Origin: an uncultured Chloroflexia bacterium
Lineage (GTDB): Bacteria > Chloroflexota > Limnocylindria > Limnocylindrales > CSP1-4
Assembly (NCBI GenBank): GCA_963740825.1
Contig: CAVUFD010000002.1
Coordinates: 968,944-1,032,943 of the forward strand
Reading direction: 5' to 3'
Length of the DNA: 64,000 nucleotides
This document shows positions 24,159 to 63,676 of the stretch, one piece after another. The notes under the pieces were generated by a model, which ran no database searches, was not told the origin of the DNA, and saw only the letters and a list, made by a program, of their open reading frames with translations. A program made the position numbers and the translations under genes. Position 1 is the stretch's first letter; each line of letters begins with the position of its first letter.

Positions 24159-24548
24159 TCAGCGTCGGACGAGCGTCCGGAACAGGTGCTCGAGGGTCGC
24201 CGCGGCGTCGTCGGTCAGGCCGGTATGGACCTCCGACGGCTGGATGATCGTCGACGACGGCGCGACCAGCCAGTGGAAGCGTTCGCCCATCGAGAGCGCG
24301 GCGATGGGGCCGGCGGCTCCGTCGCCATCGGCGATCCGGACGATCCCGTCGAGGTGCGCCCGGACGTTGTCGGGATCGCAGTCGGGAGCGAGCGCGGCCA
24401 GCACCGCTGGATCCAGCTCGACCTGCGCGCCCAGGAACCGATGGGGCCGGGACATCAGCACGATCCCCGCGTTGAACGCCTCGCCCCTGTCCACGCGCGG
24501 CACCACCCGCACGATCGCGTACTCGAACGGCTTACGCGGCCCGGGCAC
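24159..24548 (-). CDS. DUF3037 domain protein
   Basis: FEYAIVRVVPRVDRGEAFNAG, ERFHWLVAPSSTIIQ. Confidence 0.9.
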   Translation of the reverse strand: MPGPRKPFEYAIVRVVPRVDRGEAFNAGIVLMSRPHRFLGAQVELDPAVLAALAPDCDPDNVRAHLDGIVRIADGDGAAGPIAALSMGERFHWLVAPSSTIIQPSEVHTGLTDDAAATLEHLFRTLVRR

Positions 24549-25308
24549 GCTCGGCCTCCTCCACGAACGCCCGCGGGGCCTCGAGCCGCTGGACGAGATA
24601 GTCCACGTAGGCACGGCGGTGGGCATCGGGATCCGCGAGTCCGGACTCGGGCTGCAGCCAGTCGTCGGGGATGGCGGCCGCGAGCCCCTGGAGCAGCGCC
24701 GGCGTGACCATCGGCGCGAGGCGGGCGTCCGCCGCCTCGATCGACGACGCGAACGGCAGCAGCACGTGGTCCCGGATCGGATGGAACGGGCGCCGGGCAT
24801 GCTCCGCCGGATCGCGCCAGCTGTGGTGGATGTACAGCGCCGATCCGTGGTCGATCAGGTGAAGCCGACGATGCCACACGATGAGGTTCGGGTTGCGCGG
24901 CGTCCGGTCGACGTTGGTCGTGTAAGCGTCGAGCCAGACGATGGCGGCGGCCAGGTCCGGGTCCGGTGCCGGGCCCACGGCCGGCGCGAAGGCCAGGGCG
25001 CCGGGCAGGAAGTCGAGGCCGATGTTGGTGCCCGCCGACCGTTCGAGCAGGTCCTGGATCTCGCGGTTCGGCTCGGCCTTGGCGAGGGTGGCGTCGAGCT
25101 CGACGAGCACCTGGTCGGGCACGGGAAGCCCCAGATGGCGCGCGATCTCGCCGGCCAGCAGCTCCGCCACCAGCGCCTTCCGGCCGTGCCCCGCGCCGAG
25201 GAGCTTGACCACGTAGAGCCCGTCGTCGTCGGCCTCCACGAGCGCGGGCAAAGACCCGCCCTCGCGCAGGGGCGTCACGTACCGGGTCGCCGTCACGGTG
25301 CGGAGCAT
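24532..25308 (-). CDS. HipA-like family kinase
   Basis: LREGGSLP, YVVK, NVDRTPRNPN, LIDHG; TACACT-N7-ATG. Confidence 0.9.
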   Translation of the reverse strand: MLRTVTATRYVTPLREGGSLPALVEADDDGLYVVKLLGAGHGRKALVAELLAGEIARHLGLPVPDQVLVELDATLAKAEPNREIQDLLERSAGTNIGLDFLPGALAFAPAVGPAPDPDLAAAIVWLDAYTTNVDRTPRNPNLIVWHRRLHLIDHGSALYIHHSWRDPAEHARRPFHPIRDHVLLPFASSIEAADARLAPMVTPALLQGLAAAIPDDWLQPESGLADPDAHRRAYVDYLVQRLEAPRAFVEEAERARAA

Positions 25309-25435: not shown

Positions 25436-25834
25436 ATGGACACCGCCATCCACCTGGACCCGGCCATTCACGACGCCCTCGACCACAGCCAGACCGTCGA
25501 CATCAGCACGACCGGCCGGCGGACGGGCGAGCCCCGCCGGATCGAGATCGCCCTCCACAACATCCGCGGGCGCCTGGTCATCAGCGGCCGCCCCAGCCAC
25601 CGGACGCGGGCCTGGATCTACAACCTCGAGGCCGATCCCCGGCTGACCGTCCACCTCAAGCGCGGCGTGCAGGCGGATCTCGCGGGAACCGCACGGGTCG
25701 TCACCGACCCCGAGGAGCGCCGGGCGTTGCTGGTCGACGTCGCGCGCGCCTGGAACCGCACCGACGTCGAGCCGATGATCGAGCTCAGCCCGCTCATCGA
25801 GGTCCACATCCCGGGCTACGGTCCCGAGGTCTAG
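25436..25834 (+). CDS. Split beta-barrel deazaflavin(F420)-dependent oxidoreductase-like protein
   Basis: TTGRRTGEPR, WIYNLEADP. Confidence 0.75.
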   Translation: MDTAIHLDPAIHDALDHSQTVDISTTGRRTGEPRRIEIALHNIRGRLVISGRPSHRTRAWIYNLEADPRLTVHLKRGVQADLAGTARVVTDPEERRALLVDVARAWNRTDVEPMIELSPLIEVHIPGYGPEV

Positions 25835-39892: not shown

Positions 39893-40689
39893 TCAACCGC
39901 CGGCCCGGGCGAGCCCCGCGACGCGGTCGCGCAGGTCCGGGTGGATCGGCGGCAGCGCGCCGACGGCGGCGTTCGCGGCGGCGTGGGCGGCCGACGTGGT
40001 CGCGGGGATGGCGACCGTCACGCGCGGATCTGCGAGGCACCAGCGGAGCAGCGCCTCCGGCCAGCCGGACAGGCCGGCCGCGGCGAGCTCCGGCGGGAAT
40101 GGGCGGCGGAGCAGCTGCCCCTCGCCCAGCGGGCGCATCGCGATCACGCCCAGCCCGAGGTCCGCGGCGAGCGGCAGGATCCGGCCCGCGCTCTGGTCCT
40201 CGACCGGGTTGAACGGCACCTGGACGGCGTGGATCCGGCCGGAGCGCATGACGGTCTCGAGCTCCCCGAACGCGGACGGCTGGTACGTCGTCGCCCCGAG
40301 CCAGCCGATCGCCCCGGCCTCACGCTCGCGCTCCATCCAGGCGAGGTGCGAGCGCCACGCGACGAGGTTGTGGACCTGCAGCAGGTCGACCTTGCCGAAC
40401 CACCGGAGCTGGTCGGCGAACTGCCGGCGGCCGTCGGCGACGTCGGGGGTCCAGACCTTCTCGCCACGATCGCCTCGCCGCGCCCCGCCTCGAGCGCGGT
40501 CCCGAGACGCGCCTCCGACCGCCCGTACATCGGCGAGCTGTCGACGAGGCGGGTCCCTCCATCGAACGCGGCCGAAAGGACCTCGTTGACGTCGGCCTGC
40601 CGTTCGGCGGGCACGTCGAACGTCCGCCACGAGCCCAGGCCCACGACCGGGACCTCGAGCCCGGTCGCGAAGAGTGTCCGGGTCTCCAC
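39893..40689 (-). pseudogene. Aldo/keto reductase with a 1-nt deletion near 40460 (or sequencing error)
   Basis: Frame 1 GLGSW...DSSPMYG...EAIVA; frame 2 KVW...DLLQVHN...IAMRPL; adding one base restores IVATKVW. Confidence 0.85.
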
Positions 40690-40769
40690 GATCCCACCTT
40701 ACCGGCGACGCCCGGCCGCGGGGCCAGCCTGACCGAACGATGGGCCGATTGTTGAGTCGGGTACATAGG

Positions 40770-41237
40770 ATGGTCACCATGCTCCGCGCGTCGGTTCGCA
40801 TCCAGCGCGTCGTGGCGGCCCTCGCGGTCGCGATCCTCGCGTGCCTCGTCCTCGGCGGCTGCGGTCGCATCCTCGGCCCTCGCGAGTGGACGATGCAGGC
40901 GGCCCGCACGGACGGCAGCTCGTACGCGATCCGTGTCCGCGACGCGAGCGGGCGGATCGACAACGCCGAGATCGACCCGGTCGAGCCGGTTCCGGAGCTG
41001 GACGCACCGATGAACCCGCCCGGCGAGCCGAACGTCGTGCTCGTCCCGTGGACCGGCGGCGAGTGCGACGCGCAGACGGAGATCCTGATCGAGGGCAACG
41101 GCTCCGGGATCGTGATCTTGGTCTCGGCCACCAGCGATGCCAGCACCTGCACCGACGTCGGCGTCCCGCACATGCTGCGACTCCACGGCTCGGGCCCGCT
41201 CCCGGCGGGCGCCGTCCAGGTCAGGCAGGGACCGTAG
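40770..41237 (+). CDS. Hypothetical lipoprotein
   Basis: LVLGGC lipobox; W-x-GG-x-C...C pair. Confidence 0.65.
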   Translation: MVTMLRASVRIQRVVAALAVAILACLVLGGCGRILGPREWTMQAARTDGSSYAIRVRDASGRIDNAEIDPVEPVPELDAPMNPPGEPNVVLVPWTGGECDAQTEILIEGNGSGIVILVSATSDASTCTDVGVPHMLRLHGSGPLPAGAVQVRQGP

Positions 41238-41268
41238 GCCCAGCCCGATACGGTGCGGGCCGCCGGAT

Positions 41269-44022
41269 TCAGTCCGGGGTCCGCGCCTCGAGGATCGCGG
41301 CCCGGACGAGCGACGGGGTCGCGGGGACGCGGTCGATCCGGGCGCCCGTCGCGTGCCGGATCGCCGCCAGGATCGCGGGTGCCGTCGGGACCAGCGCGGG
41401 CTCGCCGACGCCCTTGGCGCCGAACGGGCCAGCCGGCTCTGCGTCCTCGACCAGGAGGCACTCGATCTCCGGCGCGTCCCCGATCGTGGGGATCAGGTAG
41501 TCGTGCAGGTTCTCCGTGCGACCAGGCACGTACGCCTCCATCAGCGCCATGCCCAGCCCCTGGACGATGCCGCCCTGGATCTGGCCCTCGACCAGCGTCG
41601 GGTTGATCGCCCGGCCGACGTCGTGGGCCGCGACGATGCGGCGCACCTTGACCGTCCCCAGGTCGAGGTCGACGTCCACCTCCGCGACCTGCGCGCCGAA
41701 GGCGTACGTCTCGTACGGGACGCCCTGGCCGTCGGCATCGAGCGGCGTGGTCTTCGGGTCGTACGAGCCGCGTCCCAGCACCACGCAGTCGCGACCCGCG
41801 GCCGGCAGCTCGCGCAGCTCCACGATCGAGACCGTCTCGCCGTCCCGCACGGCCACGCGCCCGCCATCGATCTCGAGCGTCGCGTGCTCCCCCGCCTCCG
41901 CGAGGGTCAGCAGCTTGCGGCGCAGGTCCGTGGCGGCGATGCGGGTCGCGTTCCCCGACACGAACGTCTGGCGCGAGGCCGAGGTCTTGCCGGCGTCGAG
42001 CGTGAGGTCCGTGTCGGGCCCGAGGCGGTCGACGTCGCCCACCGGCACGCCGAGGGCGTCGGCGGCGATCTGGGCGAGGATCGTGTTCGAGCCCTGGCCG
42101 ATGTCGGTGGCCCCGGAGAACAGGATCACGCTGCCGTCGGCCCGGATGCCGACCTCGATCTCCGACGGGTTCGGCAGCGACGTGTTGCCGATGCCGTACC
42201 ACATGGCCGCGACGCCGACGCCCCGGCGGACACGGCCGGTCGCGGCGTCGTTGACGGCCGTCGCCTCCGCCCGCAGCGCCAGCCACCGGGGCCGCAGGGC
42301 ATCGAGGCAGGCGGGCAGGCCGGCGCTCGCGGTGAGCTCCTGGGACGTCGCCGTCCGCGAGCCGGCGTGGAGCGCGTTGCGGGCGCGCAGCTCGAGCGGG
42401 TCGATGTCGAGCTGTTCGGCCAGATCGTCCAGCAGCGCCTCGTGCGCGATCGCCGCCTGCGGGACGCCGAAGCCGCGGAAGGCGCCAGCCGGGGGCCCGT
42501 TGGTGTAGACGGCCCGGCTGGTGCTGAGGACCGAGCGAACCTCGTACGGGCCCATCGCATGCACCGGGACGCGGCTGGCGACCGTCGGTCCCCACGAGGC
42601 GTAGGCGCCGGTGTCGAAGTCGGCGTGCACGCGGACGCCGGTGAGCCGCCCCTCCGCGTCGGCGCCGAACGTGGCCACGATCCGGGCCGGGTGACGCTTG
42701 GTCGTGGACGCCATCGACTCCGGCCGCGGGTAGGCGGCGCGCACCGGATGGTCGAGCAGGAGCGCGGCGATCGCGATCAGCGGCTGCAGCGACAGGTCGA
42801 GCTTGCCGCCGAACCCGCCGCCGCAGGCGCTCGGGATGACCCGCACCCGGTCCTCGGGCAGCCCGAGGACCAGCGCCAGCTCGTCGCGATCCATGTACGG
42901 CGTCTGGGTGGTCGCGAAGACCTCGACGCGCCCGTCCACCAGGCGGGCGGTGCCGGCCTCGGGCTCGATGTATGCGTGCTCGACGTAGGTCGTCTCGAAG
43001 GTCCCGCTCGCCGTCGCGGCCGCAGCCGCCAACTCCGCGTCCACGTCGCCCAGTCGGACGAGGCCCTCGATGAGCACGTTGCCGGGCGACGCCTCGTGGA
43101 GGCGGGGCGCCGCCGGGTCCAGCGCGGCATCGATGCCGATCAGCGGCGGCCGTGGCTCCCACACGATCGGCAGCTCGTCGTCGGCGATCGAGGCCACGGT
43201 CGCCGCGTCGCCCACGAGCGCAAGCACGGCCTCGCCCCGGTACCGGACGTAGCCCTCGGCGAGCACCGGCTGATCCTTGCCGGTCGCGTAGATCCCGTAC
43301 CGGTTCTGGCCGGGCACGTCGTCGGCGGACAGGATGCGGACGAGCCCCGGGTGCGCGGCCAGCACCGGCGCCAGGTCGCCGACCCGGAATCGGGCGTGGG
43401 CGTGGGGCGACCGGACCACGCGCAGGTGCCAGGCGCCGTCGGCCGGGAGGTCGTCGCCGAACCGCTCCGCACCCGTGACCTTGGCGAGCCCGTCGGTGCG
43501 GGCGATGCGCGCGCCGACCGCGGCACCGACGGCCGGGACGGGCACCTCCGCGACGGCGCCCGAGGCGGTGGCGCGAACCGCGTCGATGATCGAGGTGTAG
43601 CCGGTGCACCGGCAGAGCACGCCGCCGAGCCCGTCGAGGATCTCCGTCGGCGTCGGGCTCGGCGTGCGCGCGATCAGCTCGTCGGCCGCCATCAGCATCC
43701 CCGGCGTACACGCGCCGCACTGGGCGCCGCCGCAGGCGAGGAACGCGCGCTGGAGCGCCGACGGGCCGGCGGCGGCAGCGAGGCCCTCGACCGTCTCGAT
43801 GCGCCGGCCGTCCACCTGGCCCGCCGCGACCAGACAGGCGCAGACCTGCTCCCCGTCGAGCCGGACGGTGCACGCCCCGCAGTCGCCGGCGTTGCAGCCG
43901 ACCTTGGTACCGGTCAGGCCGAGGTCCTCGCGCAGCACGTCCACAAGGCGGCGCCGTCCGTCGGTCCGGATCTCCACGGCCCGCCCGTTGACCTTGAACC
44001 GGAGCACCGTGTCGGTGATCAC
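41269..44022 (-). CDS. Xanthine-dehydrogenase-family Mo subunit fused to an N-terminal 2x[2Fe-2S] domain (nicotinate-dehydrogenase-like)
   Basis: GCNAGDCGACTV, CGACTPG, CRCTGY, GGGFGGK, AFRGFG, KGVGEP. Confidence 0.92.
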   Translation of the reverse strand: MITDTVLRFKVNGRAVEIRTDGRRRLVDVLREDLGLTGTKVGCNAGDCGACTVRLDGEQVCACLVAAGQVDGRRIETVEGLAAAAGPSALQRAFLACGGAQCGACTPGMLMAADELIARTPSPTPTEILDGLGGVLCRCTGYTSIIDAVRATASGAVAEVPVPAVGAAVGARIARTDGLAKVTGAERFGDDLPADGAWHLRVVRSPHAHARFRVGDLAPVLAAHPGLVRILSADDVPGQNRYGIYATGKDQPVLAEGYVRYRGEAVLALVGDAATVASIADDELPIVWEPRPPLIGIDAALDPAAPRLHEASPGNVLIEGLVRLGDVDAELAAAAATASGTFETTYVEHAYIEPEAGTARLVDGRVEVFATTQTPYMDRDELALVLGLPEDRVRVIPSACGGGFGGKLDLSLQPLIAIAALLLDHPVRAAYPRPESMASTTKRHPARIVATFGADAEGRLTGVRVHADFDTGAYASWGPTVASRVPVHAMGPYEVRSVLSTSRAVYTNGPPAGAFRGFGVPQAAIAHEALLDDLAEQLDIDPLELRARNALHAGSRTATSQELTASAGLPACLDALRPRWLALRAEATAVNDAATGRVRRGVGVAAMWYGIGNTSLPNPSEIEVGIRADGSVILFSGATDIGQGSNTILAQIAADALGVPVGDVDRLGPDTDLTLDAGKTSASRQTFVSGNATRIAATDLRRKLLTLAEAGEHATLEIDGGRVAVRDGETVSIVELRELPAAGRDCVVLGRGSYDPKTTPLDADGQGVPYETYAFGAQVAEVDVDLDLGTVKVRRIVAAHDVGRAINPTLVEGQIQGGIVQGLGMALMEAYVPGRTENLHDYLIPTIGDAPEIECLLVEDAEPAGPFGAKGVGEPALVPTAPAILAAIRHATGARIDRVPATPSLVRAAILEARTPD

Positions 44023-44912
44023 CCCGCCACCTCGGCGATCGCGCGCCGGACCAGCGTGAGGGCCGCGTCCCAGCGGTAGTCGTTGGTGCCCCGGACGTCG
44101 TCGATCGGCGCCAGCGGGGACAGGTGCTCCATCGCCGGGATCGTCGCGAGGGCCAGACCCGCCCGCCGCCCGCGAAGCTCGCGCTCGAGGCCGCGCAGCC
44201 GCCGTGCCACCGGCGAGCAGGCACCGACCGCGACCCGGACATCGACGACGACGCCGTTGGCCACGACGAGCACGGCCGACACCGCGACGATCGAGATCAC
44301 CAGGTACGCGCGCGAGCCCAGCTTGAGGAACGTGGACCGGGCGACGCTCGCCGACCCGACATCGGCCGCCGCGGGGCCAGCGGCCGTGATCTTCGGCACC
44401 CGCAGGCCCGTCACGAGCTCGCCGGCCCGCAGGTCCGTGCGCCGGTTGCCGAGCACGAAGTCCGCGACCGGCACCACGCGCACGCCGTCGGCGGACGCGA
44501 CCTCGACCGACGCGTCCAGCGCGAGCAGGCTGGGCAGGCCGTCCGCCGCCGGCGAGGCGTTGACCACGTTGCCGCACACGGTCCCGGCGTTCTGGATCTG
44601 GCGTCCCCCGATCGTCCGGGCCGCCGCCCGCAGCCCGTCGAGCTCGGGCGGCAGCGCCGCCTCGGCCAGGTCCGTCCAGGTCGTCAATGCCGGGATCAGC
44701 CAGGCGTCCCCGCCGTCGGCCACGCCCCGGAGGCCGGGGAGCGCCGTGATGTCCAGCACGGGCCGGTCGATCGGCCGCGTGGCGTAGGCCGGGTAGACGT
44801 CGGTCCCGCCCGCGACGATCAGCCGCGGCTCCGAGGCCAGGATCGCGAGCGCCTCCTCGAGGCGGTCCGGACGCAGGTAGGGCGGGAGCGGGCTGGTGAC
44901 GCCGGCCGCCAC
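44019..44912 (-). CDS. Mo-hydroxylase FAD-binding subunit (CoxM/XdhB-like)
   Basis: AGGTD, QIQNAGTVCGN, SPAAD, PIDDVRG. Confidence 0.9.
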   Translation of the reverse strand: MAAGVTSPLPPYLRPDRLEEALAILASEPRLIVAGGTDVYPAYATRPIDRPVLDITALPGLRGVADGGDAWLIPALTTWTDLAEAALPPELDGLRAAARTIGGRQIQNAGTVCGNVVNASPAADGLPSLLALDASVEVASADGVRVVPVADFVLGNRRTDLRAGELVTGLRVPKITAAGPAAADVGSASVARSTFLKLGSRAYLVISIVAVSAVLVVANGVVVDVRVAVGACSPVARRLRGLERELRGRRAGLALATIPAMEHLSPLAPIDDVRGTNDYRWDAALTLVRRAIAEVAG

Positions 44913-44914
44913 GA

Positions 44915-45910
44915 TCAGGCCGCCACCCTCGGCAGGACGTCGCTCGCCAGTCGCTCGAGGTTCGCCGGGTCCCAGTTGAGGGGGTTGAGCACGAGGTGGT
45001 CGACGCCGCCCAGCGCCTCGACCTTGGCGCGGATCCGGTCGGCGACCTCCTCGGCCTCGCCCAGCAGGTAGTAGCGCTGCCAGTAGTCGAGGTCCATGCC
45101 CGAGTAGACCCGGAACAGCGGCGTCGCGTCCTCGGGGCGCTCGCCCGGCCGCAGGACGTGCACGAAGTTGGAGTACACGCGCGACATCTGCTCCGGCCTT
45201 CGCCCGTATTCGAGCATGTAGCGGCGGAGGTCGTCCCAGTCGCGGTCGACCATGTCCGCGGTCGCCGAGGAGTGGGGAACCCACGTCTTCGCGTACTTCG
45301 CGATCCGGCGCAGGACCGGCTCCACCGTCGGCACCTGCTGGCCGTAGATCTTCTCGGACGGTTGCGTGCCGCCGCCGATCCAGATCGGCGGATGCGGCCG
45401 CTGGGCGGGCTTGGGGTCGAGCGACAGGTCGTGCACGCGGTAGAAGCGGCCCTCGTATGTCACCTGGTCCTGGGTCCAGAGCGCGGTGATGAGCTCGAGC
45501 AGCTCGTTCATCCGCGCGCCGCGCTCCCGATGGGGGATGCCGACCGCCTCGAACTCGGCCTCCATCCAGCCCACGCCGACGCCCAGGATCGAGCGTCCGC
45601 CGGACAGCTGGTCGAGCGTCGCCCACTGCTTGGCAAACTGGACGGGCTCGCGGAAGGGGAGGACCAGGACGAGCGTGCCGAGCTGGATCGTGCGCGTGAC
45701 GCCCGACAGGGCCGCCAGCAGCGTGATCGGCTCGAGCCACGTCGTCCGGTAGGCGGGCGGGGCGACGAGCAGGTGGTCGATCAGCATCGCGGTCTCGAAG
45801 CCGAGGTCCTCGGCGCGCCGCAGGTAGGCACCCATCTCGGCGAGGGACGCGGTCTGGTCGCCCAGGGCGAACGATGGCAGCCGGAGCCCGTAGTGCATCT
45901 GCCCCGCCAT
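44915..45910 (-). CDS. LLM-class flavin/F420-dependent oxidoreductase
   Basis: IDHL, EPITLLAAL, TLDQLSGGR.ILGVGVGW, PIWIGG. Confidence 0.9.
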   Translation of the reverse strand: MAGQMHYGLRLPSFALGDQTASLAEMGAYLRRAEDLGFETAMLIDHLLVAPPAYRTTWLEPITLLAALSGVTRTIQLGTLVLVLPFREPVQFAKQWATLDQLSGGRSILGVGVGWMEAEFEAVGIPHRERGARMNELLELITALWTQDQVTYEGRFYRVHDLSLDPKPAQRPHPPIWIGGGTQPSEKIYGQQVPTVEPVLRRIAKYAKTWVPHSSATADMVDRDWDDLRRYMLEYGRRPEQMSRVYSNFVHVLRPGERPEDATPLFRVYSGMDLDYWQRYYLLGEAEEVADRIRAKVEALGGVDHLVLNPLNWDPANLERLASDVLPRVAA

Positions 45911-45924
45911 CGGCTCGCCCGCGC

Positions 45925-47100
45925 CTAGTGCCCGGCCGCCGCGATCCCCGGGCCCTTGACGACCTCGGGGGCGCGCCCGGCAGGCGGCGTGTTGCGGCTG
46001 CGGCCGACGGCCAGCTTGCCGTCGATCAGGATCATCCCGACCCCGGGCAGGTCGCCGATGGCCAGCGCGCCGAGCGCGGAGTCGGCCGCGGAGCCCTGTG
46101 GAGCGTCCACCAGTGCGATGTCGGCCTCGCGACCGACCGCGATCGTGCCGGTGTCGAGCCGATGGACGCGCGCCGTGTTGCCGGTGGCCAGGCACACGGC
46201 CAGCTCGGGGGCGATCCCGCCCAGGGATGCGAGGTGCCCCATCGTGCGCAGGATCCCGAGCGGGACCACGCCGGTGCCCGACGGGGCGTCGTTGCCGAGG
46301 ATCACCCGAGCCAGGGCGCCGGCCTCGCGTGCAAGGCCGATCGCGTGGAGCGCCGCCCGCCCGTTGCCGCAGTGGACGATCTCGATCGCCATCCCGCTCG
46401 CGACCAGCTGCTCGATGTCGGCATCGGGGAGGGCGGTCGTGCCGCCGTTGATGTGGCCGACGATGTCGGGGCGGGCCTCGAGCACGACGTCCGCGCGGAT
46501 GGCGCTCGACCCGGCGATGGACGGGCCGCCCGTGTGGAACGTGGACACCATGCCGTGCTGCCGTGCCCAGCCGAGCATGGGCGCGGCCTGGGCGCCCGTC
46601 TTCACCGAGCCGAGGCCCACCTCGCCGATCAGGTTGACGCCGGCCGCGGCGAGCTCGGCAAAGTCCGCCTCCTCGAGGCCGAGCTCGAGGATCGGCGCGC
46701 CCGCGTGGACCTTGACGCCGGCCGGCCGGACGTTGGCGAACGCCCGAACCGCGACGATCGCCAGCGCCTTGAGCCCGACGAGGTCTTTCGGCCGCCCCGG
46801 GAGGTGGACCTCGCCCGCCGAGATCATCGAGGTCACGCCGCCGTGGAGCTCGGACTCGATGAAGTCGGTGGTGCGCTGGCGCGGCGTCCAGTCGCCGAAG
46901 ACCGGGTGCACGTGGGAGTCGATGAGGCCCGGGAACGCCGTCACGCCCTTGCCGTCGATCACGACGTCGGCGTCCTCGTCGAGGGCACGGCCGACGGCCG
47001 TGATCCGACCGTCCTCGATCAGGATCGAGTCGGCGTCCAGCAGCGGCGCCTCGATGTCGCCCGAGACGACCTCGCCCAGGCCCGCGATCAGCGTACGCAT
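45925..47100 (-). CDS. ena: Enamidase-like amidohydrolase
   Basis: VSGDI, PGLIDSHVH, PRQ, HGGVT, PGRPKD, HTGG, HINGG, GNDAPSGTG, SRNTPP, as recalled for Eubacterium barkeri enamidase. Confidence 0.85.
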   Translation of the reverse strand: MRTLIAGLGEVVSGDIEAPLLDADSILIEDGRITAVGRALDEDADVVIDGKGVTAFPGLIDSHVHPVFGDWTPRQRTTDFIESELHGGVTSMISAGEVHLPGRPKDLVGLKALAIVAVRAFANVRPAGVKVHAGAPILELGLEEADFAELAAAGVNLIGEVGLGSVKTGAQAAPMLGWARQHGMVSTFHTGGPSIAGSSAIRADVVLEARPDIVGHINGGTTALPDADIEQLVASGMAIEIVHCGNGRAALHAIGLAREAGALARVILGNDAPSGTGVVPLGILRTMGHLASLGGIAPELAVCLATGNTARVHRLDTGTIAVGREADIALVDAPQGSAADSALGALAIGDLPGVGMILIDGKLAVGRSRNTPPAGRAPEVVKGPGIAAAGH

Positions 47101-47119
47101 CGGGCTCGCACGGGCGGCG

Positions 47120-47692
47120 TCAATGGAGCCCGTCGCTGCCGACGGCGTCCTCGGCCTTGAGGCCGCCCACGCGGGCGTGCGGCCGGCCGCCGTTGGTCAC
47201 GGCCAGCGCGACCAGCAGCTCGTCGGCCATCGGCGCGTCGGGGACGCAGATCTCCATCGCGTCGAAATGGGATCGGACGAGCATCGCCTTGACGTGGTGG
47301 ACGGGGATGTCGAGGTGGCTGCCGATGCCACCGCGCTTCTTGACCGACGGCAGGATCGAGACGCCATCCACGAGGCTGCGGACGGGTGCCCCGAACTTGG
47401 GGTGGAGCACCGCCGCGACGTGCTCGAGCTCGCCGTGCTCACCGACGATGCCGCCTTTGCCATATGCCTCCACCTGGTCGCCCAGGGCCGCCTTGCACCG
47501 CCGCATCAGCTCGTCGCCCAGGGTCTCGCCGGCGTCGATGAGCTGGGAGATGTCCTCGGAGTAGACGCCGGCATACGGGTTGTTCAGCACCGCGGCGACG
47601 GCGACGCGGCGCAGCGGCCTCTCGAGGTCGCGGCAGCCCTCGCTGTGGATCTCCTCCGTGAACGTGACCCATTTGCGGACGTCGACGGCCAC
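47120..47692 (-). CDS. Amino acid synthesis family protein (DUF1185)
   Basis: AAVLNNPYAG, AYGKGGIVG..GELEH, VRSHFD, PHARVG. Confidence 0.9.
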   Translation of the reverse strand: MAVDVRKWVTFTEEIHSEGCRDLERPLRRVAVAAVLNNPYAGVYSEDISQLIDAGETLGDELMRRCKAALGDQVEAYGKGGIVGEHGELEHVAAVLHPKFGAPVRSLVDGVSILPSVKKRGGIGSHLDIPVHHVKAMLVRSHFDAMEICVPDAPMADELLVALAVTNGGRPHARVGGLKAEDAVGSDGLH

Positions 47693-47878
47693 GCCTGCTC
47701 ACCTCTTCCGATGCTGTGCGGGAGCGATCCGTTGATCATCCGGGGTCGCACGGCCTCCGTGCAAGGCGACGAACGACGCAGGGCGCCGCCGCCAGTGGCG
47801 GGGATTGAACCTGCAGCCTCCTTGGACCACCTTTAGTCGGCGAAGCGCCCAACCAGGGCGTCGCAGACGAGGGGCCTG

Positions 47879-48430
47879 ATGCGGGCACCGCTGGTGGAGC
47901 GAGCGAGGCAGGGCGACGACGTCGCCTTCGGCGAGCTCGTCGACGCCGACGGGGACCGCTGCTTCGCGATCGCCTATCGGATCCTGCGCGATCACGAAGC
48001 CGCCCAGGACGCCGTGCAGCAGGCATTCCTGCTGGCGTGGCGGGACCTGCCCAAGCTGCGGGACGTCGAGCGCTACGACGTCTGGCTGCATCGCCTGCTC
48101 GTGAACGCATGCTACGAGGAATCCCGCCGCCAGCGACGGTGGACGAGCCGGATCAAGGTGCTGCCGGTCGACGGACCGGAGGTGCCAGATTCGACGGTCT
48201 CGGTCGACGACCGCGACCTCCTCGATCGCGCGTTCGCGCGACTCACTCCGCAGCACCGCGCGGTGTTCGTGCTCCACCACTACGCCGGGCTGCCGGTCGC
48301 CACGATCGCCCAGGTCGTCGGCGTCCCGGTCGGCACGGTCAAGTCCCGTCTTCACCACGCGACCCGCTCCCTGCGAGCGTCGGTCGCCGTCGATTCCATC
48401 CTCGACTCAGCGGAGATCCAGTCGGCATGA
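47879..48430 (+). CDS. ECF sigma factor (copy 1)
   Basis: GDDVAF, AQDAVQQAFL, WLHRLLVNAC, GTVKSRLHHA. Confidence 0.95.
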   Translation: MRAPLVERARQGDDVAFGELVDADGDRCFAIAYRILRDHEAAQDAVQQAFLLAWRDLPKLRDVERYDVWLHRLLVNACYEESRRQRRWTSRIKVLPVDGPEVPDSTVSVDDRDLLDRAFARLTPQHRAVFVLHHYAGLPVATIAQVVGVPVGTVKSRLHHATRSLRASVAVDSILDSAEIQSA

Positions 48431-49822: not shown

Positions 49823-51046
49823 TCAGTCCGGGAACGCCTCCGGCCCGCGCTCGGACAGCTCGCGCGCGTGCGCCTCGGCGTCCTCGGGCGGCAGCCATGA
49901 ATAGGGGTAGTTCGGGTCGTCGAGGTCCATGGCCGCCTGCGTGACGTGCAGCGGGTGGAACGTGTCCACCATCACCGCGAGCTCCTCGGTCGCCTCCTTG
50001 CCTATCGATGCCTCGGCGGTGCCCGGGTGCGGGCCGTGCGGGATCCCGGCCGGGTGGAGGGTGAACGAGGCGATGTCGACCCCACGCCGGCTCATGAAGT
50101 TGCCGGCGACGTAGTAGATGACCTCGTCGCTGTTGATGTTCGAGTGGTTGTAGGGCGCCGGGATCGCGAGCGGGTGGTAGTCGAACTTGCGGGGCACGAA
50201 CGAGCACACGACGAAGTTCCGGGCCTGGAACGTCTGGTGGACGGGCGGGGGCTGGTGCACCCGGCCCGTGATCGGCTGGAAGTCCGCGATGTCGAACCGG
50301 AACGGCCACAGGTAGCCGTCCCAGCCGACGACGTCGAACGGGTGGTGCCGATAGTGGTAGGCCGTGATGCGGTCGCTCGAGCGGACGTCGATGACGTAGT
50401 CGCCGTGCTCGTCGAGCGGCTCGCGGAACTCGGGCGAGTGGAGGTCGCGCTGCCCGTACGGCGAGTGCTCCAGCAGCTGCCCATAGTCGTTGCGGTAGCG
50501 CTTGGGCGGCTCGATCTCGGAGGGCGCCTCGAGGTACAGGATCCGCTGGTCGGAGCCCGGGTCCGGATCCAGCCGCCACGTGGTGCCGATCGGCAGCACC
50601 AGGTAGTCGCCGGGGTGGTAGGCGAGGTCGCCGAAGACCGTCCGGCAGACACCCGTTCCTTCGTGGACGAACAGCATCTCGTCCGCGATCCCGTTGCGAT
50701 AGAAGCGGTTCTCGGGCATCGGCCCGGCCGGTCGGACGATCCCGAACACCACGTCGTGGTTGAAGTACAGCGGGACCCGGCCGGTGAGCACGTCGCCCTT
50801 CGGGGGGACGGCGCCGGTGTTCGTGAGGCGGTGGCGATGGAGGCCGTCGTCCGCCGCCTGGAGGTCGATCCGCGGGCCCGGTTCGAGGTGGTGCGTCCGC
50901 GTCGGCGGCGTCAGGTGGTAGAGGAGGGAGCTTCGCCCGGTGAACCCCTCGACCCCGAACAGCTCCTCCGCGTGCAGGCTCCCGTCGGCCGCCCGGTGCT
51001 GGGTGTGCCGCGTGGGCGGGATGGAGCCTCGCGAGACGTAGTACAT
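49823..51046 (-). CDS. hmgA: Homogentisate 1,2-dioxygenase
   Basis: EGF.G.SSLLYH, GWDG, HQPPPVH, PYNHSN.NSDE, HP.G.PHGP, VMVDT. Confidence 0.95.
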   Translation of the reverse strand: MYYVSRGSIPPTRHTQHRAADGSLHAEELFGVEGFTGRSSLLYHLTPPTRTHHLEPGPRIDLQAADDGLHRHRLTNTGAVPPKGDVLTGRVPLYFNHDVVFGIVRPAGPMPENRFYRNGIADEMLFVHEGTGVCRTVFGDLAYHPGDYLVLPIGTTWRLDPDPGSDQRILYLEAPSEIEPPKRYRNDYGQLLEHSPYGQRDLHSPEFREPLDEHGDYVIDVRSSDRITAYHYRHHPFDVVGWDGYLWPFRFDIADFQPITGRVHQPPPVHQTFQARNFVVCSFVPRKFDYHPLAIPAPYNHSNINSDEVIYYVAGNFMSRRGVDIASFTLHPAGIPHGPHPGTAEASIGKEATEELAVMVDTFHPLHVTQAAMDLDDPNYPYSWLPPEDAEAHARELSERGPEAFPD

Positions 51047-54775: not shown

Positions 54776-55429
54776 TCAGGCCGGTTGGGAAGTTCCTGCG
54801 GAGGCCGGATCGTCGAAGTCGAGGCGGACGAGGAGTCGCGGCAGGCCGGCGCTGCGGGCCGCCGTCTCGAGGACGCGGTGGAAGCCCGCCTGGTCGAACA
54901 TCGAGGCGATGCCGACGAACGCGAAGCCGACGTCGACGCGCCCGCCGGCCGGATCGATCGGGTACGCCTCGACGCCGGGCGCACCGGCCTCGCGGGCGGC
55001 CTGGACCACGTGCTCGAGCAGCGCCCGCGCGACGCCCCGCCGACGGTAGCCGACGCGGATCCGGAAGCAGCCGATCGCCCACACCGGCTCGTCGTCGATC
55101 GAGGGGATCGTCCTCGACCGGACGAGCCGCGGCGCCTCCGTGCGGACAACGACCCCGCACCAGCCGACCGGCTCGTCGCCGAGATAGGCGAGGAACCCGG
55201 GCGGCACGTCGAGCTCGAGCTGCGCCCGGAGCGCGGCCGGGCGGCTCCCGGGTGCCGCGGTGCCGTATCCGCTGGCCTGGCCTCGCCAGGGCTGGCACCA
55301 GCAACCCTTGTCGTCATCGCCCCCGAGGATCAGCGCGATGTCGTCCCAGCGATCGGCGGTGGCAGGAACGATAACCAGGTCGGCGGCGATGGATCGACCC
55401 TCGGACGCCTGTCGGCCCGTCGTGCTCAC
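54776..55429 (-). CDS. GNAT acetyltransferase
   Basis: CWC, VGWC, YRRRGVARALL, VEAYP, FDQAGF; GTGA-coupled to fahA. Confidence 0.85.
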   Translation of the reverse strand: MSTTGRQASEGRSIAADLVIVPATADRWDDIALILGGDDDKGCWCQPWRGQASGYGTAAPGSRPAALRAQLELDVPPGFLAYLGDEPVGWCGVVVRTEAPRLVRSRTIPSIDDEPVWAIGCFRIRVGYRRRGVARALLEHVVQAAREAGAPGVEAYPIDPAGGRVDVGFAFVGIASMFDQAGFHRVLETAARSAGLPRLLVRLDFDDPASAGTSQPA

Positions 55430-56451
55430 GACGGTCGCGCCACCACCGGCGTCACGAGCCGCCCCAGCCGCTCGATCTCCAGCACGACCTCGTCGCCCGG
55501 CTCCAGGTAGCGGCCGAGGGTCTCCTCCCGGATCTCGAGCAGGCAGCCGCCGCCGACGGTCCCGCTGCCGAGGATCTCGCCCGGACGCAGGTGCACGTCG
55601 GCCGAGGCCCGCGCCACCATCTGCCCGAACGCGTAGTGCGCGCTGGACCAGGTCCCGCTGGTGGTCTCGACCGACCGGCCATCGTGCGTCCGGACCGTCG
55701 CCACCATCGCGAGGTCCGGTCCCGTCGCGCCCGGAGACCGCCGGTCCGCGAGCTCGTCCGGCGTGACCAGCCACGGCCCGATGGAGACCCCGAAGTCCTT
55801 GCCCTTGGCCGGCCCGAGGCGGAGCACGCTCTCGTCGCGCTGGAGGTCGCGCGCGGACCAGTCGTTCAGCACGAAGTAGCCGCCGATCGCGTCCTCGCCG
55901 CGCTCCTCGGCGAGATCGATCGCCGGGGTGTCGATCAAGGCCCCGACCTCCAGCTCGTAGTCGAGCTCGGACGACTCGCGCGGCGCCCAGATGGGATCGC
56001 CGGCCCCGCGGAGCTCGGCCACGTTGGAGAAGTAGAAGATCGGCAGGCGGTACCACGCCTCGGGGATCGTCTGGTCGCGTCGCTCCCACATCGTGCGGAC
56101 GTGTCGCTCGAACGCGTAGAAGTCGCGGAACGATGGCGGGCGGAGGATCGGGGGGCCGAAGGCCAGGTCGGCGGCGTCGAAGACGGCGTCGTCGCCGTCG
56201 CGCGGGACGAAAGGCTCGACGAGGTCCGCCAGGCCGGCGATGCGCAGGCCGTTGCCGAGGTGGTCGTCGAGCGTGGTCACCGGCCGGCGGTGCAGGGCGC
56301 TGTCGTGGGCGAGGTTCGAGTTCGCGGCGATGGCGCGCCGGCGAGCGACCTCGAGGTCGACCCAGCGCAGGCCGCCGGAATCGAGCGCCGCCGCCAGGCG
56401 CCAGTCGGCCCCTGCGGCGGCATGTCGTTCCCGGACGTGGGCGAGACGCAT
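55426..56451 (-). CDS. fahA: Fumarylacetoacetate hydrolase family protein (probable fumarylacetoacetase)
   Basis: RDFYAFERH, PIFYFSN, LDYELE, NDWSARD.Q, KGKDF, GSGT; lies between hppD and hmgA. Confidence 0.8.
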   Translation of the reverse strand: MRLAHVRERHAAAGADWRLAAALDSGGLRWVDLEVARRRAIAANSNLAHDSALHRRPVTTLDDHLGNGLRIAGLADLVEPFVPRDGDDAVFDAADLAFGPPILRPPSFRDFYAFERHVRTMWERRDQTIPEAWYRLPIFYFSNVAELRGAGDPIWAPRESSELDYELEVGALIDTPAIDLAEERGEDAIGGYFVLNDWSARDLQRDESVLRLGPAKGKDFGVSIGPWLVTPDELADRRSPGATGPDLAMVATVRTHDGRSVETTSGTWSSAHYAFGQMVARASADVHLRPGEILGSGTVGGGCLLEIREETLGRYLEPGDEVVLEIERLGRLVTPVVARPS

Positions 56452-60363: not shown

Positions 60364-61560
60364 CTAGAGGTTCCCGCGCCGCGCCTGTTCCAGCTCGATC
60401 GCCTCGAACAGCGCCTTGAAGTTGCCCACGCCGAAGCCCCGCGAGCCGTGGCGCTCGATGATCTCGAAAAAGAACGTCGGGCGGTCCTGGATCGGCCGGG
60501 TGAAGATCTGGAGGAGGTAGCCCTCCTCGTCGCGGTCGGCCTCGATCCCCAGCTCCTCGAGCACGTCCATCGGGACCCCGACGTCGCCCACGCGGTCGCC
60601 CAGCGACTCGTAGTAGGCGTGGGGCATGCCCAGGAACTCGACGCCGTTGTCCCGCAGCCGGCGCACCGTGCCCACGATGTCCTCGGTCCGCAGCGCGACG
60701 TGCTGCACGCCGGGCGTGTGGTACCAGTCGAGGAACTCCTGGATCTGGCTCTTCTTCTTGCCCGTGGCGGGCTCGTTGATCGGGAACTTCACCCGGCCGT
60801 TGCCGTTGGTCATGACCTTCGACATGAGCGCGCTGTAGTCGGTGTGGATGACCTTGTCGTCGTAGTGGATGAGCTGGGCGAAGCCGAACACGTCGCGGTA
60901 GTAGTCCACGAACCGGTTCATGTCGCCGAGCCCGACGTTGCCGACGCAGTGGTCCACCTCGAGCAGGCTGAGGCCCGATGCGGCCCTGGCCGGCCTCTTG
61001 ACCTTGCGATAGCCCGGCGCGAAGGCGCCATGGTAGTCGCGACGGTCGACGAAGCTGTGGCGCACCTCGCCGTAGGTCCAGACCGCGCTTCGTCGCAGGA
61101 CCCCTTCCTCGCCGCCGTCGAGCTCGACCGGCTCCATCGCGGACCGGGCGCCGCGGGAGGTGGTCTCGCGCCACGACGCCGCCGAGTCCTTGACCGCGAA
61201 CGCGATGTCCCGGACGCCGTCGCCGTGGGCGCGCACGTGCTCGGCGATCTCGCCGTCGGGCGTGAGCGGCGCCGTCAGCACGATCCGGATGTCGTGATGC
61301 TGCATGACGTAGCTGGCCCGGTCGCGGACGCCGGTCTCGAGCCCCGAGAAGGCGACCGGCGTGAAGCCCCAGAGCGCGCGGAAGTAGGCGGACGCCTGGC
61401 GGGCGTTGCCCACCCAGAACTCGACGTGGTCGATGCCGTCGAGCGGCAGGAAGTCCTTGGCCTCCGCGAACGCGTCGGCGTTGAGATGAGCTCCCGACTG
61501 GTTGGCGACGGGCGTGCCGACCGGGCCGGCCTGGCCCGGGCGCGAGGCTGTATCGGTCAT
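60364..61560 (-). CDS. hppD: 4-hydroxyphenylpyruvate dioxygenase
   Basis: IDHVEFWVGNA, HGDGVRDIAF, DHCVGN, QHVAL, LLQIFT, FFEIIER, GFGVGNFKALF. Confidence 0.97.
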   Translation of the reverse strand: MTDTASRPGQAGPVGTPVANQSGAHLNADAFAEAKDFLPLDGIDHVEFWVGNARQASAYFRALWGFTPVAFSGLETGVRDRASYVMQHHDIRIVLTAPLTPDGEIAEHVRAHGDGVRDIAFAVKDSAASWRETTSRGARSAMEPVELDGGEEGVLRRSAVWTYGEVRHSFVDRRDYHGAFAPGYRKVKRPARAASGLSLLEVDHCVGNVGLGDMNRFVDYYRDVFGFAQLIHYDDKVIHTDYSALMSKVMTNGNGRVKFPINEPATGKKKSQIQEFLDWYHTPGVQHVALRTEDIVGTVRRLRDNGVEFLGMPHAYYESLGDRVGDVGVPMDVLEELGIEADRDEEGYLLQIFTRPIQDRPTFFFEIIERHGSRGFGVGNFKALFEAIELEQARRGNL

Positions 61561-61722: not shown

Positions 61723-62025
61723 ATGAGCTCCAACGACAACGGGCGCGCCGAGGCTCGAACCCGAGCCAACCGCCGGCTGCGCAGGATGACGATCGGGACG
61801 ACGATGCTCGGCCTGGCGGCGACGGGCACCCTCGGCTGGCTGGCCGGCGTCACCGACAACGGGACGACGGCGATCGGGGCCGAGACGGCGATCGTGACGG
61901 ACTCCACGTTCGCGTCGACCGGATCCATCTCCTCGACGACCACGACGTCGACGACGCGCGCCGCGACCGCCCCGACGGTGACCACGACCACCGGCAGTGG
62001 CCATGCATCGAGCGGCGGCTCGTGA
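61723..62025 (+). CDS. Small Thr/Ser-rich exported protein with RR-containing signal-like N-terminus
   Basis: RANRRLRR + hydrophobic segment; ends TTTTGSGHASSGGS. Confidence 0.75.
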   Translation: MSSNDNGRAEARTRANRRLRRMTIGTTMLGLAATGTLGWLAGVTDNGTTAIGAETAIVTDSTFASTGSISSTTTTSTTRAATAPTVTTTTGSGHASSGGS

Positions 62026-62026
62026 C

Positions 62027-62980
62027 GTGATCGACCAGGTCGAATGGCGAGCGCTCGGGACGGGGGTCCGCGTGGTCGTGCTCAACGGGGACCTGCCGGC
62101 GGCTCGTGCCGCGGTGGACGGCGTGCTCGCGGACGCCGACCTGGCGTACAGCCGGTTCCGGGCCGACTCCGAGCTCACGGGCGTCAACGCGCAGGCGGGC
62201 CGGACGGTCGTTGTCAGCGCCACCCTCGCTCGGGCGATCGATGGCGCCCTCGATGCGGCGCGCCGCACCGGCGGGGCGGTCGACCCCACCGTCGGCCGCG
62301 CCATGCGCCTCATCGGCTATGACCGTGACTTCGACCTGATCGCGGGCTCAAGGCGCCCCCTTGAGCTCCACATGGAGCCCGTACCGGGCTGGTCGGTGGT
62401 CTCGTTCGACGCTCGGCGCCGCTCGCTCCGCGTGCCTCGGGGCGTCGAGCTCGATCTCGGGTCCACCGGCAAGGGGCTCGCCGCCGACCGTGCGGCAGGG
62501 TCCGCCTTGACGGCTGCCGGCCCGGGAGCCGGCGTCCTCGTCAGCCTGGGCGGGGATATCTCGACCGCGGGCCTGGCTCCCGATGGTGGCTGGCGGATCC
62601 TCATCGTCGAGGACAGTCGGACGCCCCCCGATGGCGACGGCGAGCTGATCGCGATCCACCAGGGAGCCGTCGCGACGTCGAGCACCACGGTGCGACGCTG
62701 GCAGTCGCTCGACGGGGTCAGCGTCCACCACATCGTCGACCCGCGCACGGGTACCCCGGCTTCGACGCATTGGCGCACCGCCTCGGTCGTGGCCGCCAGT
62801 GCGGAGCTGGCCAACGCGGCGTCGACCGCCGCGATCGTCATGGGCGATGCCGCGCCGGACTGGCTGCGTGACAACGGCGTGGCGGCCCGTCTCGTGGCGA
62901 ACGACGGCGGCGTGACCCGCCTCGGCGGATGGCCGGCGCCCGACGGGATGGTCGCGGGCTCCGCTCCGTCATCGGACTGA
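62027..62980 (+). CDS. apbE: FAD:protein FMN transferase, no signal peptide visible
   Basis: SRFRADSEL, DLGSTGKG, SLGGD, ATSS, HHIVDPRTG. Confidence 0.92.
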   Translation: MIDQVEWRALGTGVRVVVLNGDLPAARAAVDGVLADADLAYSRFRADSELTGVNAQAGRTVVVSATLARAIDGALDAARRTGGAVDPTVGRAMRLIGYDRDFDLIAGSRRPLELHMEPVPGWSVVSFDARRRSLRVPRGVELDLGSTGKGLAADRAAGSALTAAGPGAGVLVSLGGDISTAGLAPDGGWRILIVEDSRTPPDGDGELIAIHQGAVATSSTTVRRWQSLDGVSVHHIVDPRTGTPASTHWRTASVVAASAELANAASTAAIVMGDAAPDWLRDNGVAARLVANDGGVTRLGGWPAPDGMVAGSAPSSD

Positions 62981-63019
62981 AAGGTCCCGGACGCGACACT
63001 CGGCGCGAAACCGTTACCA

Positions 63020-63056
63020 GGGCGCGGGGTCACGTTCCTCCTTCGACCCCGCGCCC
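63020..63056. other. Intra-operon stem-loop with pyrimidine loop
   Basis: GGGCGCGGGGTC-acgttcctccttc-GACCCCGCGCCC, 12-bp stem. Confidence 0.7.
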
Positions 63057-63073
63057 GTCCTCCGGAGACGCCT

Positions 63074-63676
63074 TTGATGTTCGACCAGGTCCTGTGGTTC
63101 GCCACCCGAGGCGCGGGCGCGGTGTCGCTGATGATGTTCACCGCGGCGACCTGTCTCGGGCTCGTGACGGTGACCCGGTTCCAGGCGGCGGGCTGGCCCC
63201 GCTTCTTCAACTACGAGATGCACCGGCGGGTATCCCTGCTGTCGATCGTGTTCCTCGCGGTCCACGTCCTGGCTGCTGTCTTCGACCCGTTCACATCCCT
63301 GGGGCTCGGCGCGGCCCTGGTGCCCCTCGCATCGACGTACCGGCCCCTCCCGGTCGCCCTCGGCGTCATCGCCCTCTACCTGTTCGTCGCGCTGATCGCG
63401 ACGAGCCTCCTGCGCAAGCACATCGGCCAGCGGACCTGGCGCCTCGTCCACTGGTCGTCGTACGCGATGTGGCCGCTGGCCGTGCTCCACGGGCTGACCG
63501 CGGGCACCGACGGCTGGTCGACGTGGATGCTTGGCATCGACGTCCTGTGCGTCTCGGCGGTCGCGGCCTGCCTCGCCTGGCGGGTGATGGCCGGCAATCC
63601 AAATCGGAGCCAGCTCGCCGGCATCGTCGCGACGTCGTCGTTGGATGCCCGGGCGCCACGACGGAAGGCCCGATGA
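63074..63676 (+). CDS. Ferric-reductase-like (MsrQ-like) di-heme b membrane protein
   Basis: WFATRGAG, MHRR, VHVL, WRLVHW, LHGLTAGTD. Confidence 0.88.
   Translation: MMFDQVLWFATRGAGAVSLMMFTAATCLGLVTVTRFQAAGWPRFFNYEMHRRVSLLSIVFLAVHVLAAVFDPFTSLGLGAALVPLASTYRPLPVALGVIALYLFVALIATSLLRKHIGQRTWRLVHWSSYAMWPLAVLHGLTAGTDGWSTWMLGIDVLCVSAVAACLAWRVMAGNPNRSQLAGIVATSSLDARAPRRKAR

Follow-up and report, generated by a model that had tools for sequence, protein, structure and literature searches.

A five-gene operon on the minus strand of a 64,000-nucleotide stretch of DNA from an uncultured Chloroflexia bacterium (contig CAVUFD010000002.1; this whole stretch is termed the window below) is predicted to encode an upper nicotinate pathway in which an LLM-class oxidoreductase stands where 6-hydroxynicotinate reductase (Hnr) would be expected. 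Enamidase (Ena), the ring-opening enzyme of this route, acts on 1,4,5,6-tetrahydro-6-oxonicotinate and not on the aromatic 6-pyridone; a two-electron reduction of the ring must therefore precede it, and in Eubacterium barkeri and in proteobacterial clusters this reduction is performed by Hnr. We give an even chance to the proposal that the LLM protein is a non-orthologous, probably F420H2-dependent, replacement of Hnr within an upper nicotinate operon of the E. barkeri/Azorhizobium type, judging from homology and gene context. The original prediction, made from the letters of the window, had put forward this replacement, and comparative evidence now supports it: LLM and Hnr exclude one another, the LLM gene is linked to the genes for enamidase and DUF1185, and the remainder of the cluster is shared by the two types.

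The base composition of the window is 72% G+C, and lists of its open reading frames (ORFs) are therefore full of spurious frames. Gene calls at 41269-47692 were made with a codon-position GC plot and a GC3 log-odds gene caller, both of which picked the same five consecutive minus-strand genes, and coordinates were fixed by inspection of start codons and by the lengths of orthologs. In operon order, preceded by the region upstream, the features are as follows:

47693-47878, no strand assigned: divergent intergenic region of 186 bp between the operon and an ECF sigma-factor gene, delimited by the gene calls
47120-47692, minus strand: AA_synth/DUF1185 protein, first gene of the operon, 190 amino acids (aa), PF06684
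45925-47100, minus strand: enamidase ortholog, 391 aa, matching PDB entry 2vun
44915-45898, minus strand: LLM oxidoreductase of the TIGR03619 class, 327 aa, PF00296 and TIGR03619
44019-44912, minus strand: FAD-binding subunit of a molybdenum hydroxylase, 297 aa, PF00941 and PF03450
41269-44022, minus strand: fused [2Fe-2S] and molybdopterin-binding subunit, 917 aa, five Pfam domains

These genes are separated by only 19, 26, 2, and -4 nt, the start of the fused iron–sulphur/molybdenum (FeS-Mo) gene overlapping the stop of the FAD gene by 4 nt, and they thus form an operon-like unit. The second gap shrinks to 14 nt if an alternative LLM start is used, an upstream ATG at 45910 that would give 331 aa (the orthologs have 327 aa). 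Close packing of DUF1185, enamidase, LLM, FAD, and 2Fe-2S plus molybdenum genes on one strand had been described in the original prediction, and Pfam and NCBIfam confirm every domain. The divergent intergenic region is presumed, by inference, to be the promoter region of the operon; a scan of 40600-48400 returned neither a sigma-70-like promoter nor an intrinsic terminator, such a scan being uninformative for this taxon.

The names of the best matches place the window in Chloroflexota and, more narrowly, in Candidatus Limnocylindrales, at 82%–83% identity. Three LLM orthologs on long contigs (75%–76% identity) and a further locus, L001 (LLM 85% identical), which was reached through its enamidase, have the same cassette with different flanks. 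The arrangement is, on this comparison, not a product of chance, since the same cassette recurs in the same order in independent contigs whose flanks differ.

The distribution of LLM and Hnr was compared across enamidase loci. An enamidase alignment scan of one genome per GTDB species returned 80 loci, and the BLAST comparison extended over 81, drawn from Chloroflexota, Methylomirabilota/Rokubacteria, Acidobacteriota, Alpha- and Betaproteobacteria, Bacillota, Thermodesulfobacteriota, Actinomycetota, and others. Gene content was scored by BLAST with defined queries against six-frame ORFs of the loci, with flanks of up to 10 kb. In one Bacillota and one acidobacterial locus, a protein of 490-506 aa lies between the nicotinate dehydrogenase (Ndh) genes and DUF1185/Ena and is followed by an ApbE-like protein (NF003322); the Bacillota version of the 490-506-aa protein carries an N-terminal 4Fe-4S dicluster. 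Several sources name close relatives of this protein ‘6-hydroxynicotinate reductase’ or ‘hnr’, which gives the family its identity, and NCBIfam has no model naming Hnr. Loci of this composition fit the published description of proteobacterial nicotinate clusters, which contain the first three pathway enzymes, an ATP-binding cassette (ABC) transporter, as well as two conserved proteins whose role is not known (PMC3511419).

Hnr without LLM occurs at 46 of the 81 enamidase loci, 45 of which also have the ApbE-like gene. An LLM ortholog without Hnr is found at seven, both together at none, and neither at 28. This mutual exclusion (Fisher p = 0.002) was the check that the original prediction had set beside ena homologs, and it came out as proposed, with seven loci set against 46 and no overlap. 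The ApbE-like partner belongs to the NF003322/PRK04334 ‘hypothetical’ family (L011-L081; e.g., L045:6705-9061 and L055:13505-15867), and the only Hnr locus that lacks it, L032, is a 4.9-kb contig.

Three loci from Kaistia and Bosea (L028, L034, and L069) have a different composition: enamidase accompanied by a pair of DUF1185 paralogs, together with an isochorismatase, MarR, and an ABC transporter as well as a PanE/ApbA-like reductase and an FAD/NAD(P)-binding oxidoreductase, with no Hnr, LLM, or molybdenum hydroxylase within 10 kb. Their gene content comes from a Pfam run on L028, with L034 and L069 matching it in gene layout, and they may represent a third solution for the ring-reduction step.

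Evidence from the LLM side is concordant. All four long LLM contigs carry Ena and DUF1185, and none carries Hnr. A metagenome scan with the LLM alignment yielded 80 further loci at 65%–94% identity. Among the 37 of these with at least 2.5 kb upstream, 34 have Ena and DUF1185 and none has Hnr; a homolog of the molybdenum subunit is present in 54 of the 57 LLM loci with at least 1.5 kb downstream. None of the seven LLM-type genome loci contains Hnr, nor does any of the 80 LLM metagenome loci. Matches are numerous, exceeding 8000 for enamidase and amounting to at least 3470 for LLM, most of them from metagenomes.

LLM, DUF1185, and Ena are kept together through three gene orders in three phyla (Chloroflexota, Methylomirabilota, and Actinomycetota). 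The Chloroflexota type, to which the window belongs, reads DUF1185-Ena-LLM-FAD-FeSMo. The Methylomirabilota type (L100-L164, e.g., L104, L114, and L157; also L006 and L008) has, in this order, a branched-chain-type ABC transporter, DUF169, Ena, (DUF1015), DUF1185, LLM, and a stand-alone molybdenum large subunit. This subunit is only 30%–34% identical to that of the window, and no adjacent FAD or FeS gene was detected in these cassettes; their hydroxylase may come from another lineage. In the actinomycetotal locus, L077, we find an LLM (40% identical), DUF1185, Ena, an aldehyde dehydrogenase, and a solute-binding protein, with separate molybdenum, FeS, and FAD genes on the other strand. Two unusual gene forms were also seen: L082:10989-14726 encodes FAD, FeS, and molybdenum portions fused in one protein of 1245 aa, and P0122 (529 aa; LLM 96% identical) was called as a fusion of LLM with an FAD domain, possibly through a frameshift or read-through.

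Genes of the isochorismatase family (nicotinamidase-like) and of the inosine/uridine-type nucleoside hydrolase family adjoin some LLM cassettes (L082:14723-15313, L083:17474-18418, L084:14712-15659, and L153:2818-3549), which suggests nicotinamide or (nicotinamide) ribosides as sources feeding the cassette and fits a setting of pyridine-nucleotide breakdown. The original prediction had left two options side by side, replacement of Hnr or an operon for a related N-heterocycle. Mutual exclusion and linkage speak for the first, and the second has lost ground because these flanking genes favour nicotinate itself.

Within the window, tblastn with two divergent queries each for Hnr and for the Hnr-type ApbE-like gene (Bacillota and acidobacterial) found neither in the 64 kb, in keeping with the earlier statement that no 6-hydroxynicotinate reductase was recognisable. 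A canonical ApbE flavin transferase gene followed by one for a ferric-reductase-like transmembrane protein is present at 61982-63676 (plus strand). The ApbE (61982-62980) was considered as an Hnr partner and rejected: with 172.7 bits it is a complete ApbE, and the NF003322-type partners resemble ApbE only weakly. Pfam scans of 46 neighbouring ORFs, which left about six predicted ORFs and some uncalled stretches (at about 12.9-14.1 kb and 16.3-18.7 kb of the window) unscanned, found no gene like hydroxymethylglutarate dehydrogenase (Hgd), again as first noted, albeit in a search that is not exhaustive. Hmd, a mutase, and a 2-formylglutarate aldehyde dehydrogenase were likewise missing from the operon and the scanned ORFs.

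The remaining proteins of the operon agree with an upper nicotinate pathway. The window amidohydrolase is, by homology along its full length, a true enamidase ortholog and not a generic amidohydrolase: it aligns with the E. barkeri enamidase (2vun) over residues 2-380 at 54% identity (E=2.3e-129), and its next PDB match reaches only 1e-7. Residues H63, H65, E160, H189, H216, and D271 are invariant in an alignment of eight sequences that includes the E. barkeri enzyme; as is usual in the superfamily, these are presumed to be the metal ligands and catalytic positions of the amidohydrolase barrel (HxH, Glu, His, His, Asp). Two more amidohydrolase-superfamily genes in the window, at 7560-8759 and 18736-19995 (both on the minus strand), are by context not enamidase orthologs.

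The DUF1185 protein matches PF06684 with 228.8 bits over profile positions 1-175 of 175, and its PDB relatives, 2qtp (7e-54) and 3byq (6e-31), are both solved and uncharacterised. A homolog is present at 57 of the 81 enamidase loci, and DUF1185 also stands beside Ena in proteobacterial, acidobacterial, and Bacillota clusters; by its distribution, it is a conserved companion of enamidase in LLM-type and Hnr-type clusters alike. The window has one copy, whereas 34 of the 46 Hnr loci have two tandem paralogs.

The FAD and FeS-Mo genes are predicted to encode a nicotinate 6-hydroxylase (dehydrogenase). PDB searches with the FAD subunit returned 4zoh_B (7e-28) and 3hrd_C, the FAD subunit of nicotinate dehydrogenase (1e-14). 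The 917-aa subunit contains the Pfam domains Fer2, Fer2_2, Ald_Xan_dh_C, MoCoBD_1, and MoCoBD_2. Its best single PDB chain is the Desulfovibrio gigas aldehyde oxidoreductase MOP (391 bits), and its best relative by summed score is E. barkeri nicotinate dehydrogenase, at about 648 bits (3hrd_A 263, 3hrd_B 243, and 3hrd_D 142 bits for NdhL/NdhM/NdhS). The window FAD subunit is 46%–58% identical to FAD subunits of other enamidase loci, and the fused subunit is 53%–64% identical, over its full length, to the fused subunits whose genes neighbour Hnr in Alphaproteobacteria and Acidobacteriota. Hydroxylase, enamidase, and DUF1185 are thus common to both cluster types, with the hydroxylase subunits of the window 46%–64% identical to those beside Hnr in these two groups, so that what essentially sets the types apart is the reductase module, which is Hnr plus the ApbE-like protein in one and LLM in the other.

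The LLM protein scores 180 bits against PF00296 and 209.7 bits (trusted cutoff 166.9) against TIGR03619, an NCBIfam family that NCBI labels as F420-dependent LLM class oxidoreductase. All Ena-linked LLMs exceed this cutoff, the orthologs scoring 186-219 bits. The window protein falls far below the cutoffs of the FMN families RutA (44.7 vs 498), SfnG (98.8 vs 383), and SsuD (62.6 vs 518), and no flavin reductase was found within or beside the cassettes of the window, L001, L082-L084, or L104. Two insertions are common to the Ena-linked LLMs, the 40%-identical actinomycetotal one among them, and a further insertion, present in generic TIGR03619 paralogs taken from the same contigs, is missing from them; these common indels mark them, at the level of the alignment, as one specialised subfamily. 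The AlphaFold model of the LLM (pLDDT 78) gave Foldseek TM scores of 0.65-0.76 to FGD1, Mer, and Adf. The window also encodes, at 25436-25834 (plus strand), another enzyme predicted to use F420: a small ORF there matches PF04075 (F420H2-dependent quinone reductase, FDOR-A-like) with 36.8 bits against a cutoff of 22; this hints that the organism uses F420.

Production of F420 has been confirmed in Chloroflexi generally, and the known F420H2 reductases with the LLM fold include one that transfers hydride to an aromatic ring (picrate reductase) and others that act on enones and enoates (PMC8498797). F420H2 is therefore the likely hydride donor of the Ena-linked LLM, given the F420-class model, the missing flavin reductase partner, F420 production in Chloroflexi, and these precedents.

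Taken together with the known chemistry of the route, these assignments would give the following sequence of reactions. The FAD and fused FeS-Mo enzyme would convert nicotinate to 6-hydroxynicotinate, as its homology and its orthology with the hydroxylase of Hnr-linked clusters suggest. The LLM would then reduce 6-hydroxynicotinate to 1,4,5,6-tetrahydro-6-oxonicotinate in a conjugate, ene-reductase-like reaction, a role for which gene context and mutual exclusion are the grounds. The hydride, which F420H2 would most likely supply, would be added at C4, the beta position in the enone system of the C6 lactam, and protonation at C5 would follow. In this step, the LLM would stand in for Hnr, a ferredoxin-dependent Fe-S flavoenzyme, and for the ApbE-like protein that accompanies it. 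Enamidase, which is homologous over its full length to the solved enzyme, is expected to open the ring to yield 2-formylglutarate and ammonia. DUF1185 is proposed as a conserved accessory of the enamidase step; its fold resembles that of the Bacillus chorismate mutase, and handling of an enamine or imine intermediate is a speculative possibility. Later steps, whether oxidation or reduction of 2-formylglutarate, would be encoded elsewhere. The more specific proposal—that the Ena-linked TIGR03619 subfamily is an F420H2-dependent 6-hydroxynicotinate reductase which, with DUF1185 as an obligatory partner of the enamidase step, supports redox-neutral conversion of nicotinate to 2-formylglutarate and NH3—rests on sequence comparison and, in our estimate, falls just short of an even chance.

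Several observations weigh against replacement of Hnr by the LLM. PDB sequence and profile searches, as well as Foldseek, return FMN enzymes (SfnG and luciferases) and F420 enzymes (FGD1, Mer, and Adf) with similar scores, and the Pfam scans of the 46 neighbouring ORFs, with the gaps in coverage given above, revealed no F420 biosynthesis gene. The 28 enamidase loci with neither LLM nor Hnr within 10 kb, some of them short contigs and others loci whose neighbours differ, indicate that cluster content is not always complete, and three of the 37 metagenome LLM loci have no Ena upstream. The enamidase tree places the LLM-linked loci in one clade (Chloroflexota and Methylomirabilota) plus one actinomycetotal locus; this amounts to about two independent events, and not seven or 44, and the Fisher p value therefore overstates the evidence. 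Finally, the flanks examined reached at most 10 kb, so that hnr could lie elsewhere in these genomes.

Three other explanations were weighed. The one that holds up best, although still unlikely, has the LLM acting after enamidase, as an aldehyde/alcohol oxidoreductase using F420, which would either take the place of Hgd and reduce 2-formylglutarate to 2-(hydroxymethyl)glutarate or oxidise 2-formylglutarate, with the ring reductase encoded elsewhere. Several characterised F420-dependent LLM enzymes are indeed alcohol or sugar dehydrogenases (FGD, Adf, and hydroxymycolate dehydrogenase), such enzymes are among the PDB matches, and the window operon has no recognisable enzyme for 2-formylglutarate. 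The gene lost where LLM is present, however, is Hnr with its ApbE-like partner and not a downstream enzyme, and most Hnr-type clusters are themselves without a conserved downstream enzyme, aldehyde dehydrogenase occurring in only a few. In L077, moreover, the LLM coexists with an aldehyde dehydrogenase directly after Ena, and about 45 LLM cassettes offer no candidate ring reductase besides the LLM.

Slightly less probable is a role for the LLM as a RutA/PyrA-like monooxygenase that depends on FMNH2 and attacks a pyridone or pyridine ring oxidatively, in which case the chemistry or the N-heterocycle would be different. FMN-dependent monooxygenases (SfnG, luciferases, and RutA) are among the best PDB and Foldseek matches of the LLM, and monooxygenases of this fold that open N-heterocycles are known, RutA acting on uracil and PyrA on pyridine. 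Both systems likewise place an LLM-fold enzyme in an N-heterocycle catabolic operon with a hydrolase. They are, however, dependent on FMNH2 and O2 and have a dedicated flavin reductase, whereas none is found in the window cassette or conserved beside it, and the hydrolase of the window is a true enamidase ortholog. The LLM, as described above, fails the RutA and SfnG models and passes the F420-class TIGR03619. Further arguments come from its partners: the enamidase, 54% identical to the enzyme specific for tetrahydro-oxonicotinate and with its invariant catalytic positions kept, needs a reduced ring, and the molybdenum hydroxylase is orthologous to those of Hnr clusters.

Least probable of all is that the LLM is carried along as a conserved passenger, or serves on the side in regulation or detoxification, with a canonical Hnr encoded at a distance: pathway genes can spread, as in Bradyrhizobium, where Hnr lies 8-10 kb from Ena, and the inspected flanks were limited to 10 kb, but a passenger would hardly stay directly beside DUF1185 or Ena across three gene orders and three phyla with subfamily-specific indels, and Hnr is found at 0 of 44 LLM loci with adequate flanks (seven genome and 37 metagenome loci) as against 46 of 74 LLM-less loci.

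With the LLM as the proposed substitute for Hnr, the window operon can be set beside known systems. The E. barkeri cluster (NdhFSLM, Hnr, and Ena) and its aerobic counterparts in Azorhizobium and Bradyrhizobiaceae are alike in having a hydroxylase related to NdhF/S/L/M and an enamidase (PMC3511419). The window differs in its TIGR03619 LLM, which takes the position of Hnr and the ApbE-like partner, and in the absence of Hgd or later fermentation genes at the operon. Its FeS and molybdenum subunits are fused as in Alphaproteobacteria, whereas NdhS/L/M of E. barkeri are split. F420H2-dependent LLHT enzymes (picrate reductase Fht/NpdI, Mer, and FGD/Adf) share the TIM-barrel LLM fold with the window protein and provide precedents for hydride transfer to an electron-poor ring or an activated C=C (PMC8498797); however, none of the characterised members is known to use pyridones or to take part in nicotinate catabolism, and the Ena-linked subfamily has its own insertions and a cofactor that is predicted.

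Flanks of the operon are unrelated to it. Upstream lies the divergent ECF sigma-factor gene (47879-48430, plus strand), which was considered as part of the system and rejected, as it is not adjacent in related loci. Downstream are a small ORF in convergent orientation, an aldo-keto reductase gene with a frameshift, and a DNA glycosylase gene. The aldo-keto reductase is split over two frames at 39893-40689 (minus strand), the N-terminal part (40456-40689) covering Pfam profile positions 2-59 and the C-terminal part (39893-40465) positions 99-198; the frameshift either marks a pseudogene or stems from an error in sequencing. At dispersed positions upstream of the operon, on the minus strand, are genes for a homogentisate 1,2-dioxygenase-like protein (49823-51046; a weak N-terminal match), a fumarylacetoacetate hydrolase-like protein (55426-56451), and a 4-hydroxyphenylpyruvate dioxygenase-like protein (60364-61560), which probably serve tyrosine/homogentisate catabolism and are unrelated to the nicotinate operon. 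Elsewhere, a HipA-like kinase gene (PF20613) adjoins a DUF3037 gene at 24159-25308 (minus strand), possibly as a toxin–antitoxin-like pair.

The logic of the pathway is known, and the proposed reductase module would be new. To our knowledge, ring reduction in the Hnr/enamidase route has been described only for a complex, ferredoxin-dependent Fe-S flavoenzyme. Full-text literature searches found no paper linking F420 or LLM enzymes to the catabolism of nicotinate or 6-hydroxynicotinate, nor any linking F420 to Limnocylindria, and the lists in a 2021 review of F420 contain no nicotinate-catabolic F420 enzyme (PMC8498797). If the proposal is correct, substitution of a single-subunit hydride transferase for Hnr would be a clean case of non-orthologous displacement. 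One of the many LLM enzymes of the F420 class that are still orphans would thereby gain a definite metabolic function, and pyridine-ring (vitamin B3) catabolism would have its first F420-dependent enzyme. A regioselective pyridone reductase of this kind would also be a useful biocatalyst. For the organisms themselves, the enzyme would define a physiological role of F420 in soil Chloroflexota and Methylomirabilota; as the cassette is abundant in soil metagenomes, it could bear on how niacin and the breakdown products of NAD are turned over in soil.

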